From NCBI GenBank assembly GCA_963725585.1, contig CAVRYU010000009.1, forward strand, positions 413,070 through 477,069: a stretch of DNA of 64,000 nt, in the 5' to 3' direction. The translations under genes and the position numbers were made by a program. The DNA is from an uncultured Bacteroidales bacterium (lineage in GTDB: Bacteria > Bacteroidota > Bacteroidia > Bacteroidales > VadinHA17). Position 1 is the stretch's first letter. Each line of letters opens with the position of its first letter. Below, piece after piece: positions 3,503 through 9,804 of this stretch. The notes beneath the pieces are model-generated. The model did no database searches. It was not told the origin of the DNA and saw only the letters and a list, made by a program, of their open reading frames with translations.

Positions 3503-5656
3503 TTAGTTAACTGTCATAAACCTCCATGTCACTTCGCCAATATTATCTGGTTTGCCCTTTTCAGCTTTTGAAACAGTTCCCTTCAGTTTTCCCTTTTTAT
3601 CAGTCATGACAATAATATCACGCCATGAATAGCGGCCTTTTTCGTAATCGAATGTCTCACCGTCATCATCGTACAACCTGTAAAATCCAGGAGCAGAACC
3701 ATAATATCTTATTTCGAGATCATATTTTTGTCCGGATGATGGAGCATGCAAAACGGGTTTCATCATCGGAATTATTGCCCCGTCTTTTACAAATACAGGA
3801 ATTTTTCCAAGTCCCGGAGTGACCTTTATGATCTCACCATCACCGGCATATTTTCCTGAATAAAAGTCGAACCATTTGCCTTCAGGCAGGATTACTTCCC
3901 GTGTTGTCTGACCTGTAAAAAGTGGTGCCACAAGAAGGTATTCACCTGTCATATACTGGTCCCTGATTTCTTTTACAACTGCCTCACCGTAAGGATCTTC
4001 TCCAGGATCTGAATTCTTACTTAACTGCTTCGGTCTGACGTTAAACCCGGGTTCCAGATTCATTCCCCTGAATGGAGGTGTCCCCTCAAAATGATATTTT
4101 GCAAATTCGGAATAGAGATAAGGGATCAGCTGCATACGGAGCAGGGCATACTCTTTTACTTCTTTCTCAACCTCCGGGAACGACCAGGGTCTGGTTCCGC
4201 TCGACCAGGCATTTATCATCGCCATCGGCGAAAAACAGACAGTCTGGAATCTTCGAAGCCATTCTTCTCCTGTTTTTGAGCTCCTTACTTCAGGGGTCCA
4301 TAATACTCCAGCGAATCCGCTGTTGATCAATGCAGTTATGAAATCTTCGTGACTGTAATAGTCATTGTAAATAACGTAAGGGAATGATGAACCGCCACCG
4401 TTTGAGGAGCGCGTCAATCCAAATGTCCTTTGATTTTTCCGGTGAAACAGGTCAGTGGTGATCTTTTGCAGAAGCAGCCCATATGTCTGACGGATCTGTT
4501 CAGCACTGTTCCCCGATGGAAATTGAGCCACATCCGGCCATAGCCATCTGTCATAGCCGTCTGATTCATCTATCTTATAACCGCTTATTCCGATGCTTAC
4601 CTGGCTCTTATCAATTTGATCTGTCAGTATTTCAACAGCACCTGGAATTGTCAGGTCTGGAACAACACCACCCCAAACTGTATGGGTTCCTGTGAACGGA
4701 AGTATCTCCTCATAAATGGAGGATTTGGATGATATATAAGGATTGGTCCATAAATTAAGGCGGATACCCATCTCTTTCATTGTTCTTACAAAAGCGGGAG
4801 GATTGGGAAATCTTGTACTGTCCCAGTCAAGAGTACACGGATATGACCTGCTTTGCCAACCTGGTTCAAGTCCGATAAAATCAAGGGGAAACCCATGTTC
4901 TTCGAACAAATTTGCTTCATTTATGACCTGTACGGAGGTATAAAGCCTTGGTACACGCTGGGTGAATCCAAGTCCCCACCGGGGGGGTAAGCAACCGCCT
5001 CCGGAGTAAAGATTGAACCTCCTGACAGCATTAAGCATTGTGGGACCGGCAAAGATGTATATTTCAACCCCGCCGGCCGGTACAAGAATCTCCACTGCAT
5101 CACTATAAGGTTGAGCGGTCCAGTTATCATCAGTGTTCCTGTCACGCTCTTCCGGTGCATCCCGGCTATCCTTTCTTACTCCGGTCCCGGCATATATGGT
5201 AAGATATCTTGAGCTGTTAATAAATACTCCGTATCCCCTGTCAGATACATAAAATGGAACCGGAGCATGAGTACGGCCATTATCGGTACCTCCGTAATGA
5301 TCAACATGAAGCTGAAGAATCCTTCCTCGTTGATAAACTGTCTTGAAATTTAAACCGAAGCCGAAAATTTTCTCTTCCTTTTCAAGCGGAAAGCTTAGGC
5401 TGGTGGTTCCATTGCCTGTTTGTGCTGTTATTCTATCAGGTGGAAGGGGAAAGGGAGCTGCTCCCAGCTTCGATAATGCATTTAATGCAGGTTTTATTTC
5501 GGCAGCCCTGAAGAGATCCAGTTTTTCGGGTGTACCCACAGACATTTTCCACACTCCGGGGGCAACTTCACTCCATGTTGAAGTCTGGCATTGGATTGAA
5601 GTTGTCAAATAAAAGAGAGTAAGAATTCCTGAAAGTTTTAATATTGTATTCTTCAT
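3503..5656 (-). CDS. Glycoside hydrolase family 31 (alpha-glucosidase/alpha-xylosidase type), secreted
   Basis: 717 aa with a signal peptide. The layout is GH31-like (..PRWGLGF.., ..WTNPYI.., ..GYKIDESDG.. catalytic region, ..GEYLLVAP..). Confidence 0.8.
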   Translation of the reverse strand: MKNTILKLSGILTLFYLTTSIQCQTSTWSEVAPGVWKMSVGTPEKLDLFRAAEIKPALNALSKLGAAPFPLPPDRITAQTGNGTTSLSFPLEKEEKIFGFGLNFKTVYQRGRILQLHVDHYGGTDNGRTHAPVPFYVSDRGYGVFINSSRYLTIYAGTGVRKDSRDAPEERDRNTDDNWTAQPYSDAVEILVPAGGVEIYIFAGPTMLNAVRRFNLYSGGGCLPPRWGLGFTQRVPRLYTSVQVINEANLFEEHGFPLDFIGLEPGWQSRSYPCTLDWDSTRFPNPPAFVRTMKEMGIRLNLWTNPYISSKSSIYEEILPFTGTHTVWGGVVPDLTIPGAVEILTDQIDKSQVSIGISGYKIDESDGYDRWLWPDVAQFPSGNSAEQIRQTYGLLLQKITTDLFHRKNQRTFGLTRSSNGGGSSFPYVIYNDYYSHEDFITALINSGFAGVLWTPEVRSSKTGEEWLRRFQTVCFSPMAMINAWSSGTRPWSFPEVEKEVKEYALLRMQLIPYLYSEFAKYHFEGTPPFRGMNLEPGFNVRPKQLSKNSDPGEDPYGEAVVKEIRDQYMTGEYLLVAPLFTGQTTREVILPEGKWFDFYSGKYAGDGEIIKVTPGLGKIPVFVKDGAIIPMMKPVLHAPSSGQKYDLEIRYYGSAPGFYRLYDDDGETFDYEKGRYSWRDIIVMTDKKGKLKGTVSKAEKGKPDNIGEVTWRFMTVN

Positions 5657-5724: not shown

Positions 5725-5801
5725 CCCCCTTCCCAACCTTCCCCCACGGGGGAAGGAGTAAGAAAAAATCCTTTCCCCCTTGGGGGAAATAAGAAAGGGG
5801 G
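5725..5801. repeat. C/G-run nested-hairpin intergenic repeat, type 1 (copy A)
   Basis: CCCCC-ttcccaa-CCTTCCCCC acg GGGGAAGG-(15 nt)-TTTCCCCC ttg GGGGAAA-taagaaa-GGGGG. Two internal hairpins are bracketed by a complementary C5/G5 pair. Confidence 0.85.
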
Positions 5802-7188: not shown

Positions 7189-7989
7189 ATGAAGAAAATC
7201 AATTTGTTCAAAATCGGATTAGCCTCTGTGGCTGTTCTCCTATTCTTCTCATTTACAGCCGTCACAAATGCGGCTCCGCCTAAGCAAATGTATTATGAAC
7301 TAAAAATTTACCGGTTAAAAGATCCGGGTAAAGGTGCCGTTATTGACAAATATCTGAAAGAAGCTTTTATTCCGGCAATGCATAAAGCAGGAATACCTAC
7401 GATTGGAGTTTTCAAACCAATTGAGACAGATACGGCATATGGGAAAATGGTCTATGTATTTATCCCATATAAGACTATAGATCAATATCTTAATGCTATA
7501 ACAGTGCTTGAGAACGATCCAGTTCACCAGCAGGCAGGTAAGGATTTTCTTGACGCTCCATATAATGATGCTCCCTTTACCAGGTATGAGAGTGTATTCA
7601 TGAAGGCCTTTACGCTTATGCCGGAGTTCAGAGTACCTTCTTTTACCACTCCCCGGGGAGAAAGAATTTATGAATTAAGGAGTTATGCGAGTTGGACAGA
7701 GGCAAAAGCAACAAAGAAAATACATATGTTCAACGAAGGCGGTGAAATGGCTATTTTTGAAAAAATTGGAGCTAACGCTGTATTTTATGGTCAGGTATTA
7801 TTAGGCAGTCAGAAACCTAGGCTGATGTATATGACCACATATGCTGATATGAATTCGCAAAAGGAGCATTGGGCTGCTTTCTCGAATCATCCTGACTGGA
7901 AGACTCTCAGGGCAAAGGAGGAATATGCAAATACGGTTATAAAAGCGAACGCATACCTTCTTCATCCGACAGACTACTCAGATTTTTAA
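7189..7989 (+). CDS. NIPSNAP-domain protein (two NIPSNAP repeats), secreted
   Basis: 266 aa with a signal peptide. It has two copies of the Y-E-L-[KR]-x-Y start motif (YYELKIYRLK, IYELRSYAS) typical of NIPSNAP domains. Confidence 0.6.
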   Translation: MKKINLFKIGLASVAVLLFFSFTAVTNAAPPKQMYYELKIYRLKDPGKGAVIDKYLKEAFIPAMHKAGIPTIGVFKPIETDTAYGKMVYVFIPYKTIDQYLNAITVLENDPVHQQAGKDFLDAPYNDAPFTRYESVFMKAFTLMPEFRVPSFTTPRGERIYELRSYASWTEAKATKKIHMFNEGGEMAIFEKIGANAVFYGQVLLGSQKPRLMYMTTYADMNSQKEHWAAFSNHPDWKTLRAKEEYANTVIKANAYLLHPTDYSDF

Positions 7990-7996
7990 TAATTCT

Positions 7997-8077
7997 GCCC
8001 CCCAACCCCCCTAAAGGGGGGCCAGGAAAGCGAAATTTAGATCAAAATCCCCCGCTGATCTAGGGGGCGCAGGGGGC
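7997..8077. repeat. C/G-run nested-hairpin intergenic repeat, type 2 (copy E)
   Basis: GCCCCCC aa CCCCCC taaa GGGGGG ...(27 nt)... CCCCC gctgatcta GGGGG cgca GGGGGC. It abuts the trpB2 stop codon. Confidence 0.85.
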
Positions 8078-9438
8078 TAAGCTGGAAATTCTATTTTTGA
8101 AATAGCATGCTCGACTTCGGCATTTGTAAGCTCGTGATCGGGAAGGTTATTTTCAAAATACTTCTCATAAGCCGAAATGTCGAAATGTCCGTGTCCGCTA
8201 AGGTTAAAAAGTATCGTCCTTGAGACTCCCTCGATATCAGCCTTTCTTGCCTCATCAAGCGCACCGGCAATTGCATAGGTTGATTCGGGAGCTGGAAGAA
8301 TGCCTTCGTTTCTTGCAAAAAGGACACCTGCCTCAAAGCATTCCCTCTGCATTTTTGCCTTTGCTTCGACCAATCCGTCTTTCTTGAGCTGACTTACAAG
8401 TGTTCCGGCCCCGTGATAGCGTAAACCTCCTGCATGTATCTTCTCAGGCATAAAATTATGTCCAAGTGTGTACATGGGCAGGAGAGGGGTCATTCCGGCT
8501 GAGTCGCCAAAGTCGTACATGAATTTCCCCTTTGTAAGTTTAGGGCATGAGGATGGCTCAATTGTCAGCAGTCGCGTCTTTTTACCATTTACCAGGTTTT
8601 CGCGAAGGAAAGGAAATGCAATTCCGGAGAAATTTGATCCGCCACCGAAGCATCCTATTACAACATCAGGATAATCATCGGTTTTTGCCATTTGGAGCAC
8701 GGCTTCCTGTCCTATGATCGTCTGGTGAAGGATAACATGGTTAAGCACACTTCCGAGAGAGTATTTGGTGTAAGGGTCTTCAGCAGCTATTTCCATTGCT
8801 TCAGAAATTGCAATGCCAAGACTTCCCGGAGAATCCGGATCAATTTCAAGAACTCTCCTGCCTGAGACTGTCATAGTTGATGGCGAAGGAATTACCTTGG
8901 CATTATAGACATTCATCAGGAGCTTGCGTCCGGGTTTCTGACCATAGCTGACCTTTACCATAAAGACCAGAAGTTCAAGTCCGAAATGCGCACAGGCGTA
9001 ACTCATTGCGCATCCCCATTGGCCGGCTCCGGTTTCAGTTGTGATCCTTCTTACTCCTTCCTGCTTATTATAGTAAGCCTGTGCAATCGCTGTGTTGGCT
9101 TTATGAGAACCTGAATAATTGCCCCCTTCATATTTAAAATAGATTTTGCTTTTTGTACCCAGGGTTTTTTCAAGATTGACTGCCCTGAACAAAGGTGATG
9201 GACGATAAGTTTTATAGAGGTCAAGTACTTCATCAGGTATTTCAATATACCTTTCAGCTGATACCTCCTGTTTAATCAGCTCCATCGGGAATACGGCAGC
9301 CAGAGCCTCGGGTCCTATTGGCTGACGTGTTGCCGGGTTCAGCGGTGGAAGGGGCTTATTGGGCATATCCGCCATAACATTATACCAGTGGGTTGGCATT
9401 TCTTTTTCGCTCAGTAAAATTTTTGTAATCTTTTTCAT
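8077..9438 (-). CDS. trpB: TrpB2-type tryptophan synthase beta-like PLP enzyme
   Basis: 453 aa. The long TrpB2 N-terminus is present (PTHWYNVMADMPNKPLPPLNP...) along with the PLP-lysine region GGNYSGSHKANTA. No trpA or other trp gene is adjacent. Confidence 0.85.
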   Translation of the reverse strand: MKKITKILLSEKEMPTHWYNVMADMPNKPLPPLNPATRQPIGPEALAAVFPMELIKQEVSAERYIEIPDEVLDLYKTYRPSPLFRAVNLEKTLGTKSKIYFKYEGGNYSGSHKANTAIAQAYYNKQEGVRRITTETGAGQWGCAMSYACAHFGLELLVFMVKVSYGQKPGRKLLMNVYNAKVIPSPSTMTVSGRRVLEIDPDSPGSLGIAISEAMEIAAEDPYTKYSLGSVLNHVILHQTIIGQEAVLQMAKTDDYPDVVIGCFGGGSNFSGIAFPFLRENLVNGKKTRLLTIEPSSCPKLTKGKFMYDFGDSAGMTPLLPMYTLGHNFMPEKIHAGGLRYHGAGTLVSQLKKDGLVEAKAKMQRECFEAGVLFARNEGILPAPESTYAIAGALDEARKADIEGVSRTILFNLSGHGHFDISAYEKYFENNLPDHELTNAEVEHAISKIEFPA

Positions 9439-9471
9439 TGGTTTAATTATTAAATGGTTATAGAATTTTCA

Positions 9472-9505
9472 AATAAAAAAGGCATGCTGTGAACAGCATG
9501 CCTTT
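9472..9505 (-). terminator. Intrinsic terminator of the Trp attenuator, about 33 nt upstream of the trpB2 start
   Basis: The minus strand reads aaaGGCATGCTGttcaCAGCATGCCttttttattt: a 9-bp perfect stem plus a U-tract. Confidence 0.8.
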
Positions 9506-9549
9506 ATGGGTAAATATCTTGTAGATTATATAACGGCCTTATTCACAGC

Positions 9550-9600
9550 TTAAATTTTCGAGCTGCGCCAGGACCAGATATATAATGTTCCAAATTTCAT
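9550..9600 (-). CDS. Trp leader peptide MKFGTLYIWSWRSSKI
   Basis: 16-codon ORF with two Trp codons (W-S-W). Its stop is followed directly by gctgtgaa, which is complementary to ttcacagc in the terminator loop and 3' arm (candidate antiterminator). Confidence 0.7.
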   Translation of the reverse strand: MKFGTLYIWSWRSSKI

Positions 9601-9716
9601 GGCATCAAAAATAAGTAAAAATTTCAATTTGCAAGAAAAAAGCAGAAAATATTTAATTTCTTAAATATTATCGTTGGTTTTAGTGTTAATCTGTTAAAAT
9701 TGATATTATCTTTTTA

Positions 9717-9784
9717 CCCCCTTCCCAACCCTTCCCCCATGGGGGAAGGAGACTTTTCCCCCCTGGGGGAAATAAGAAAGGGGG
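9717..9784. repeat. C/G-run nested-hairpin intergenic repeat, type 1 (copy B)
   Basis: CCCCC-ttcccaac-CCTTCCCCC at GGGGGAAGG-agac-TTTTCCCCC ct GGGGGAAA-taagaaa-GGGGG. It is near-identical in design to copy A and lies just downstream of aroA. Confidence 0.85.
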
Positions 9785-9804
9785 TGTCTCACCTATTCAG
9801 ATGT

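Follow-up and report, generated by a model that had tools for sequence, protein, structure and literature searches.

A candidate tryptophan attenuator, its leader peptide probably translated from a leaderless mRNA, in front of stand-alone trpB2 genes of Bacteroidales

INTRODUCTION

Indole salvage has been the role assigned to TrpB2 paralogues since 2002, and a preference of these enzymes for O-phospho-L-serine was reported by Busch et al. in 2014; to our knowledge, little is known about when cells express them. Here, we analysed a stretch of 64,000 nucleotides (nt) from an uncultured Bacteroidales bacterium (assembly GCA_963725585.1, contig CAVRYU010000009.1, positions 413,070 to 477,069), referred to below as the window, in whose own numbering coordinates are given. 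It holds a stand-alone trpB2 gene and, directly upstream, a short leader with two Trp codons and an intrinsic terminator, which a first reading of the letters and open reading frames (ORFs), here called the original prediction, had proposed to be a Trp-sensing attenuator.

RESULTS

The trpB2 gene and the layout of its leader

The trpB2 gene (8077..9438, minus strand, as are all leader features below) encodes a TrpB-like pyridoxal 5'-phosphate (PLP) enzyme of 453 amino acids (aa). Its product scored 698.9 bits against the TrpB-like equivalog NF009057 (cut-off 366) and 615.5 bits against TIGR01415 (cut-off 518.85), and reached 144.8 bits against the canonical trpB model TIGR00263, below the cut-off of 392.45. 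Membership of the TrpB2 (COG1350-type) group was judged by an equivalog score above the cut-off, a TrpB1 score below it and a length of ~450 aa with an N-terminal extension, all of which this protein displays. In a comparison with solved structures of the Protein Data Bank (PDB), the top three matches obtained 430, 375 and 374 bits, the best being 6hul_B, and canonical TrpB1 chains reached just ~135 bits; we take the three best chains to be Sulfolobus TrpB2-type proteins, the table itself giving no organism and labelling 6hul_B 'beta chain 1'. The gene is monocistronic, as had been stated before, because its downstream neighbour (7189-7989) lies on the opposite strand and converges on it.

The leader begins with the box TATTTTTG (9606..9613), which ends 5 nt before the leader ATG. 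The original prediction had noted this short distance and had considered the promoter position unresolved; the distance is correct, but the box can be assigned as a -7 element, TAnnTTTG, of the Bacteroidetes sigma-A type. A candidate -33 element, TTG (9632..9634), whose role is deduced from the sequence, is located 18 nt upstream of the -7 box, a place at which TTG is also common in the alignment of relatives. The mini-ORF MKFGTLYIWSWRSSKI (9550..9600) runs from ATG to TAA over 16 codons, two of them UGG, at 9576-9574 and 9570-9568 (W9 and W11). Directly 3' of its stop codon lies the octamer GCTGTGAA (9542..9549), followed by GCCGTTAT (9530..9537), the 5' strand of a putative inner antiterminator helix with its partner ATAAAGGC at 9507-9500. 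The intrinsic terminator, AAAGGCATGCTG-TTCA-CAGCATGCCTTT plus a T-run (9471..9505), consists of 12 pairs, a 4-nt loop and the tail T6 ATTT. Its loop and the first 4 nt of its 3' arm together form TTCACAGC (9493-9486), the exact complement of the octamer.

The mini-ORF with its two Trp codons (9600-9550), the octamer (9549-9542) with its complement, and the terminator hairpin (9505-9471) with TTCA loop and T6 are thus as originally described. The gap between terminator and start codon, given there as about 33 nt, depends on where the terminator is taken to end: the trpB2 ATG (9438) lies 36 nt past the T6 run and 32 nt past the last T. What had been missed altogether is a larger hairpin, 1:2 (9525..9586), a putative anti-antiterminator that appears in the minimum-energy fold and is backed by covariation. 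Its 5' half corresponds to codons 5-13, with both UGG codons and the segment CGCAGC (9567-9562), and its 3' half takes in the octamer and GGCCGUUAUAUAAU. The 171-nt leader as a whole folds with z = -4.08 relative to dinucleotide shuffles.

The leader is conserved and accompanies trpB2

A genome scan with the TrpB2 protein yielded 80 loci, the nearest protein relative (98% identity, locus L071) belonging to the Bacteroidales metagenome-assembled genome (MAG) UBA10805. The mini-ORF was found, at a constant distance to trpB2, in all 56 Bacteroidales-type loci that have upstream sequence and the W-x-W motif; exactly 8 codons precede the first Trp, the core reads W-x-W-(R/C/H)-S, and the start codon is GTG in two of these loci. 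In one further locus, L007, the upstream region is too short for judging the leader. The original prediction had named a lack of conservation of this mini-ORF as one of the outcomes that would speak against it, and the opposite was found across related trpB2 leaders.

All counts on structure and promoter given below rest on an alignment, A1, of 55 leader sequences. Over 13 codons, all 55 sequences keep the leader frame open, against 3/55 and 39/55 for the other two frames. W9 and W11 are invariant, codons 3-5 take 15-21 different codons, and the middle residue x is S, R, W, L, C, P or F. Taken together, ORF and frame conservation argue for translation of the mini-ORF. The peptide varies between 14 and 24 residues among relatives as the position of the stop codon shifts. 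The nucleotides that encode DAVKQAII in the long versions are equally conserved in the short versions, where they are not translated; this stretch is therefore conserved as RNA, since it is kept also where an earlier stop ends translation.

How far does the leader extend beyond this group? In 25 more distant trpB2 loci (65-68% identity; Cytophagales, Saprospiraceae, Chitinophagaceae, Ignavibacteria and others), no W-containing mini-ORF was present within 330 nt upstream of trpB2, and we conclude that the leader is confined to the Bacteroidales clade. When the window, 16 leader-bearing loci and 20 of the distant loci were scanned with Rfam at gathering level, a single match was obtained, a tRNA, and no family at trpB2, the distant loci included. 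In metagenomes, a pattern that runs from the UGG codons through the octamer matched at least 120 stretches. Among the matches listed, 60 have trpB2 directly downstream, 8 are too short and 52 are chance matches within coding DNA of GC-rich organisms, so that trpB2 follows every true copy that can be judged; at least 54 copies display every feature of the leader in an identical architecture. Given the folding z-score of the window leader together with its recurrence in 55 aligned and at least 54 metagenomic relatives, the arrangement is more than chance.

A regular-expression search for the leader over all loci and the window found a single copy per locus, always at trpB2. Upstream of the leader lies aroA in most loci, a DAHP synthase/chorismate mutase gene in L014, L015 and L033, and other genes elsewhere. 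The leader thus belongs to trpB2 and not to the upstream operon, because it accompanies trpB2 through changed neighbourhoods. One of the loci, L027 (CAVTMS010000010.1; TrpB2 identity 88%), is labelled 'Candidatus Bathyarchaeota archaeon' and carries Bacteroidales-type tyrA, DAHP synthase, aroA, leader and trpB2; the contig has probably been mis-binned into that MAG.

Three mutually exclusive helices

Hairpin 1:2 and the terminator together were 91.6% paired, with 16 pairs showing changes on both sides; none of 500 shuffles reached the score, and slid controls were 25-55% paired. These changes on both sides occurred in 9 of the 20 pairs of hairpin 1:2 and in 7 of the 12 pairs of the terminator helix, the latter being 97.1% paired. 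Covariation extends even to the x codon of W-x-W and the bases that face it in the 3' half of the hairpin (UCC with AGG; CGC or UGG with CACGCC). The outer antiterminator helix, GCUGUGAA:UUCACAGC, formed by the octamer with the terminator loop and upper 3' arm, was paired in 97.3% of cells and exhibited changes on both sides in 4/8 pairs (13 cells); again, its score was attained by 0/500 shuffles, and slid controls were 23-50% paired. Compensatory variants of this helix are GCUGUGUA:UACACAGC in L037 and L042, GCUGUAAA:UUUACAGC in L050 and GCUGUGAU:AUCACAGC in six loci. The terminator/antiterminator pair of the original prediction is thus corroborated by compensatory changes.

The antiterminator appears, however, to be larger than the octamer helix to which it had been limited. 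An inner helix, GCC(G)UUAU:AUAA(A)GGC, can be formed in 83% of cells; its pairing potential is conserved, and the helix itself is a candidate and not proven. A classical 2:3 antiterminator made of this pairing alone (GCC.UUAU:AUAA.GGC) was dropped, as its covariation did not exceed that of shuffles, and the pairing was kept as the inner part of a nested structure. The three helices are mutually exclusive because the octamer is common to hairpin 1:2 and the antiterminator, and UUCACAGC is common to the antiterminator and the terminator.

Folding calculations gave the corresponding states. In the free leader RNA, hairpin 1:2 and the terminator were predicted in 54-55 of the 55 sequences. We modelled a ribosome stalled at the second UGG by masking nt 1-45 and ending the transcript at the top of the terminator 3' arm; the antiterminator, with at least 6 of the 8 octamer pairs, was then the minimum-energy fold in 55/55, and the inner helix formed as well in 48/55. 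Mean energies were -16.6 kcal/mol for the antiterminator vs -22.6 kcal/mol for the later terminator state. The stop codons of the relatives always fall within a range from 9 nt upstream to 21 nt downstream of the octamer's first base, a position from which a terminating ribosome would cover the octamer, so that the terminator can form. The parts of the leader, their conservation, the covariation of its three mutually exclusive helices and the predicted folds are results of computation.

A promoter box that nearly abuts the start codon

The TAnnTTTG box is present in 53 of the 55 leaders and lies 5 nt from the start codon in 48 loci and 4 nt in another 2 (50/55). The Bacteroidetes -33/-7 consensus is TTTG/TAnnTTTG, and transcription in F. 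johnsoniae starts 4-5 nt past the -7 element (PMC6847099). Based on the box spacing and this start distance, transcription would start at the A of the AUG or one base before it, and the mRNA of the leader peptide is probably leaderless or preceded by a 1-nt untranslated region. Within the window, only the Trp leader has this tight spacing; in the three other attenuator-like leaders found there (see below), ~20-22 nt separate box and start codon. Bacteroidetes are a phylum without Shine-Dalgarno sequences.

Surrounding genes and further attenuator-like leaders

No further trp gene was found in the 64-kb window. Upstream of trpB2 on the same strand lie pheA, an aminotransferase gene, tyrA, the DAHP synthase/chorismate mutase gene and aroA, beyond this group hisGDCBHAF, and still farther upstream ilvD, ilvB, ilvC, leuA, leuC, leuD, cimA and leuB; the remaining genes comprise SusC/SusD pairs, oxidoreductases and sugar-related genes. 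In the window, aroA (11095-9805) is broken into two ORFs (11095-10829 and 10737-9805) that lie in different frames, and it is in one frame in relatives such as L001. A hisIE-like gene (~16070-15480), between hisF and the Phe leader described next, is likewise interrupted. Both breaks probably stem from indels introduced by long-read assembly, or the two genes are pseudogenes.

Three other leaders of the window resemble attenuators, all on the minus strand. Before hisG, a candidate histidine leader (22646-22501) comprises the box TATCTTTG, the mini-ORF MYQFQLHHHHFHPCSQAK (22618-22562), in which 5 codons are for His, and AACCCGTCTGAGCAGATCTGACGGGTTTTTT (22531-22501), a hairpin that includes a T-run; no Rfam family was matched at gathering level at this place. 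Before ilvD, a candidate branched-chain leader (34784-34658) contains the GTG-started mini-ORF MKKTLIHIIALILILATGK (34784-34725), followed by GAGGCTTTCCGGATCACCGGGAAGCTTTTTTTTT (34691-34658). Before the pheA-aroA group, a candidate Phe leader (15249-15114) contains the mini-ORF MNIVYNSFFSFFFFFFYCKKK (15249-15184) with 10 Phe codons, followed by AAGGGTCCCCAAAAAGGGACCCTTCTTTTTTT (15145-15114). Within 27 kb there are thus four attenuator-like leaders (Trp, Phe, His and branched-chain) and, as those before the his, ilv/leu and phe operons are rich in the cognate amino acid, the organism appears to use attenuation generally.

The window further contains a repeated intergenic GC-rich element of ~70-80 nt with nested C5-6...G5-6 palindromes, in a genome with a GC content of 42.6%. 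Copies lie near 5741, 8006-8075, 9716-9790, 16095, 30232, 30876, 40076, 42151, 45427 and 47071, and two of them flank the trpB2 unit. The element, which gave spurious weak microRNA and small nucleolar RNA matches in Rfam, resembles REP or a miniature repeat family.

DISCUSSION

Model of tryptophan sensing

Taking these results together, we consider it very probable that a ribosome-mediated, tryptophan-sensing transcription attenuator controls the stand-alone trpB2. A terminator and an antiterminator that exclude each other, and an anti-antiterminator that contains the regulatory codons, are among the traits of a classical attenuator, and both are found here by covariation and masked folds. In the mechanism that we propose, the sigma-A promoter, with its -7 box 5 nt from the leader AUG, would drive transcription. 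With ample charged tRNA-Trp, the ribosome would pass W9 and W11, reach the stop codon and cover the octamer GCUGUGAA; with the octamer covered, the terminator would form and transcription would stop 36 nt short of trpB2. An untranslated leader would terminate as well, because the octamer is then locked with CGCAGC in hairpin 1:2. When tRNA-Trp is scarce, the ribosome would stall at a UGG codon and hide CGCAGC, and the octamer region would be released. GCC(G)UUAU could then pair with AUAA(A)GGC at the base of the terminator 5' arm, once that arm is made, and GCUGUGAA would zip onto the terminator loop and upper 3' arm, UUCACAGC. With the terminator blocked in this way, RNA polymerase would read through and trpB2 would be transcribed. 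The transcription start, ribosome stalling, termination and read-through are inferred.

Several observations weigh against this proposal. The Trp codons are only two and are not adjacent. The predicted start lies nearly on the AUG, so that translation would require leaderless initiation, and leaderless mRNAs are a minority in those Bacteroidetes that have been studied, amounting to 5.5% in F. psychrophilum (PMC9723704), with 87% of the predicted F. johnsoniae transcripts having leaders longer than 10 nt (PMC6847099). On the side of the RNA structure, the antiterminator is weaker than the terminator by ~6 kcal/mol on average and by 4.2 kcal/mol in the window, and covariation of the inner GCC:GGC helix was not above shuffles in the 55 leaders. 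The antiterminator helix with the best support pairs with the loop and 3' arm of the terminator, not with the 5' arm, and would therefore have to win a kinetic race against a local hairpin. The leader also stays below the gathering score of the Rfam family that it matches best at the right place, Bacteroid-trp (RF01692), in the window and in 16 relatives. Finally, L018 has no leader ORF: the hairpin GGGCACGCTGTTCATAGCGTGCTTTTTTT is kept (3940-4001) directly after the aroA stop and before trpB2, which is due either to loss of the sensing part by deletion or to an error of assembly.

Other explanations of the leader and of TrpB2

Could the switch be set by something other than a translating ribosome? 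A trans-acting protein or ligand that binds UGGCGCAGC, GCUGUGAA and GCUGUUCACAGC in the manner of TRAP, a T-box or a riboswitch, the mini-ORF being incidental, would be in line with several segments that are conserved at the nucleotide level beyond pairing needs, and with the DAVKQAII part that is conserved as RNA past earlier stop codons. The most strongly conserved segments are, however, exactly those common to two alternative helices, and this double use explains their conservation. The start codon, the fixed 8 codons to the first W, the frame open in all leaders and a UGG-nnn-UGG motif with a free middle point to translation instead. Moreover, a run of at least three (G/U)AG repeats, of which the TRAP type expects 9-11, occurs in none of the 55 leaders, and no T-box or riboswitch family was matched in Rfam even at E up to 10. 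We therefore regard a trans-acting switch as very improbable. Hardly any credence can be given to the view that the hairpin is the plain terminator of the upstream phe/tyr/aro operon, with mini-ORF and octamer complement as coincidences. The hairpin does lie ~300 nt downstream of aroA, and in L018 no leader stands between the two, but a promoter box separates aroA and mini-ORF in 53/55 loci, trpB2 keeps the entire unit in loci that lack aroA or have other genes upstream, and a mere terminator would have no use for the covariation seen in the octamer helix and in hairpin 1:2.

A different matter is what the cell gains from the enzyme. Even if tRNA-Trp is sensed as proposed, TrpB2 could act as the sole beta subunit for a distant TrpA, or it could be a PLP enzyme that uses another substrate and whose expression is tied to Trp status. 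The best solved-structure match of the trpB2 product, 6hul_B, lends this some weight; it is presumably a Sulfolobus TrpB2 crystallised with TrpA, the comparison itself giving a score only. On the other side, no trp-like gene was seen beside trpB2 in the examined flanks of the relatives, a check that compared flanks by BLAST with the non-trp proteins of the window and, in 9 other loci, considered the sizes of unannotated ORFs, and that included no search with TrpA or other Trp proteins. According to the literature, Thermotoga TrpB2 turns indole into Trp with a sub-micromolar Km, and cross-fed indole allowed B. thetaiotaomicron TrpB2 (BT_RS23500) to rescue an E. coli trpA deletion (PMC11535334). 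A role outside the conversion of indole thus appears unlikely to us, and the output of TrpB2 would serve tryptophan supply, most plausibly from indole to Trp.

Implications

A dedicated Trp-codon attenuator would mean that these Bacteroidales turn trpB2 on when charged tRNA-Trp is low, which fits a role in Trp supply. The original prediction called such an attenuator direct evidence for this role; being regulatory, it is indirect evidence. The implied newness is lessened as well, since Bacteroidetes Trp leader peptides were already described in 2010 (RF01692): the kind of mechanism is well known, its family was predicted then, and the general picture of attenuation is left unchanged by the trpB2 leader. 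New here are the stand-alone trpB2 as target, at least ~110 conserved copies, a three-helix model backed by covariation and a probable leaderless start. The mechanistic interest lies in a leader peptide made from an apparently leaderless mRNA and in an antiterminator that would grip the terminator loop and 3' arm. As the current Rfam model misses a leader that is widespread in environmental Bacteroidales, the alignment of at least ~110 copies could serve to widen RF01692 or to found a sister family.

We speculate, with some doubt, on the combination of both features, i.e. that the leader mRNA is truly leaderless and that the stand-alone TrpB2 is an indole scavenger induced by Trp starvation and regulated apart from the trp operon. 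If this were true, the scavenger role might be found in lineages that depend on external indole, and the long-debated role of bacterial TrpB2 would gain a clean regulatory read-out.

Comparison with known attenuators

A close mechanistic model is the classical trp operon attenuator, trpL, reportedly set out by Yanofsky in 1981. Like this enterobacterial system (Rfam Trp_leader), the trpB2 leader has a leader peptide with Trp codons and an intrinsic terminator, and three mutually exclusive helices in the roles of 1:2, antiterminator and 3:4; in both, stalling would free segment 2 and a ribosome at the stop codon would block it. Unlike in trpL, the Trp codons are not in tandem, the main antiterminator helix takes the terminator loop and 3' arm and not the 5' arm only, the leader mRNA is probably leaderless, and a single trpB2 is controlled instead of an operon. 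The two are unrelated in sequence, the enterobacterial Trp_leader family being absent from the Rfam matches even at E up to 10.

Among other Rfam families, the trpB motif RF04312 likewise shows a hairpin followed by an intrinsic terminator, at times upstream of trpB. It is a riboswitch candidate of Firmicutes and Fusobacteria, mostly upstream of an ABC transporter (Narunsky et al. 2024, PMC11109978), and was rejected here: 19.5 bits vs 59 were obtained, a match of generic hairpin and terminator in the wrong phylum. Actinobacterial trp attenuators resemble the trpB2 leader in having predicted leader peptides with two to three UGG codons and conserved triple-complementary segments common to antiterminator and terminator (Seliverstov et al. 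2005, PMC1262725), and differ from it in phylum and sequences. The 'trpB2' of that study is the second trpB copy in a trpB2A operon, not the stand-alone COG1350-type gene; the matches of a literature search on 'trpB2' and attenuation either were irrelevant or meant such a second trpB copy.

The nearest relative of the trpB2 leader is Bacteroid-trp, which, according to Weinberg et al. 2010 (PMC2864571), apparently controls trpB and trpE in Bacteroidetes via at least two UGG codons. RF01692 was the best Rfam match at the right place, with 23.9 bits vs a gathering score of 49 (E = 1.1-5.4), and cmscan placed the model hairpin on 9586-9525. Both occur in the same phylum upstream of a tryptophan biosynthesis gene (here TrpB-like), and both have a short ORF starting with AUGAA(A), at least two UGG near codons 8-11, a loosely conserved hairpin over or after these codons (here covariation-backed) and a terminator that starts with AAAGGC. 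In many RF01692 seeds from genera other than Bacteroides, a TAnnTTTG box precedes the AUG by 4-7 nt, and several seeds from Cytophaga, flavobacteria and Pedobacter share the tight spacing of the trpB2 leader. The UGG codons of the trpB2 leader are always one codon apart, unlike the usual UGGUGG(UGG) of RF01692; the seed NZ_ABCM01000008 shares this spacing and the W-x-W-R-S motif, UGGCAAUGGCGCAGU, and one seed carries W-Q-W-R-S with UGGCGCAG. The downstream genes are other ones: among the seeds checked, those of Pedobacter, Cytophaga and flavobacteria precede trpE, the Parabacteroides seed precedes an operon-leading TrpB1-type gene (MKTYQVDENGYYGEFGGAYVPE...), and a stand-alone trpB2 follows none.

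The likeness extends to the switch itself. The trpE leader of Cytophaga hutchinsonii (seed NC_008255.1) contains an exact 8-nt complement of its own, CGUGAACA:UGUUCACG, in which the segment past the UGG codons matches the terminator loop plus 3' arm, its terminator top, GCUGUUCACGGC, is nearly identical to that of the trpB2 leader, and the profile of the trpB2 leader aligns collinearly with it (26.6 bits, six sequences searched). Pairing of segment 2 with the terminator loop, which the original RF01692 description (PMC2864571) does not mention, thus seems to be a design of the whole family. Judged by these sequence likenesses, the trpB2 leader is probably a diverged, homologous branch of the RF01692 kind, standing beside the family's formal Rfam members and not among them.

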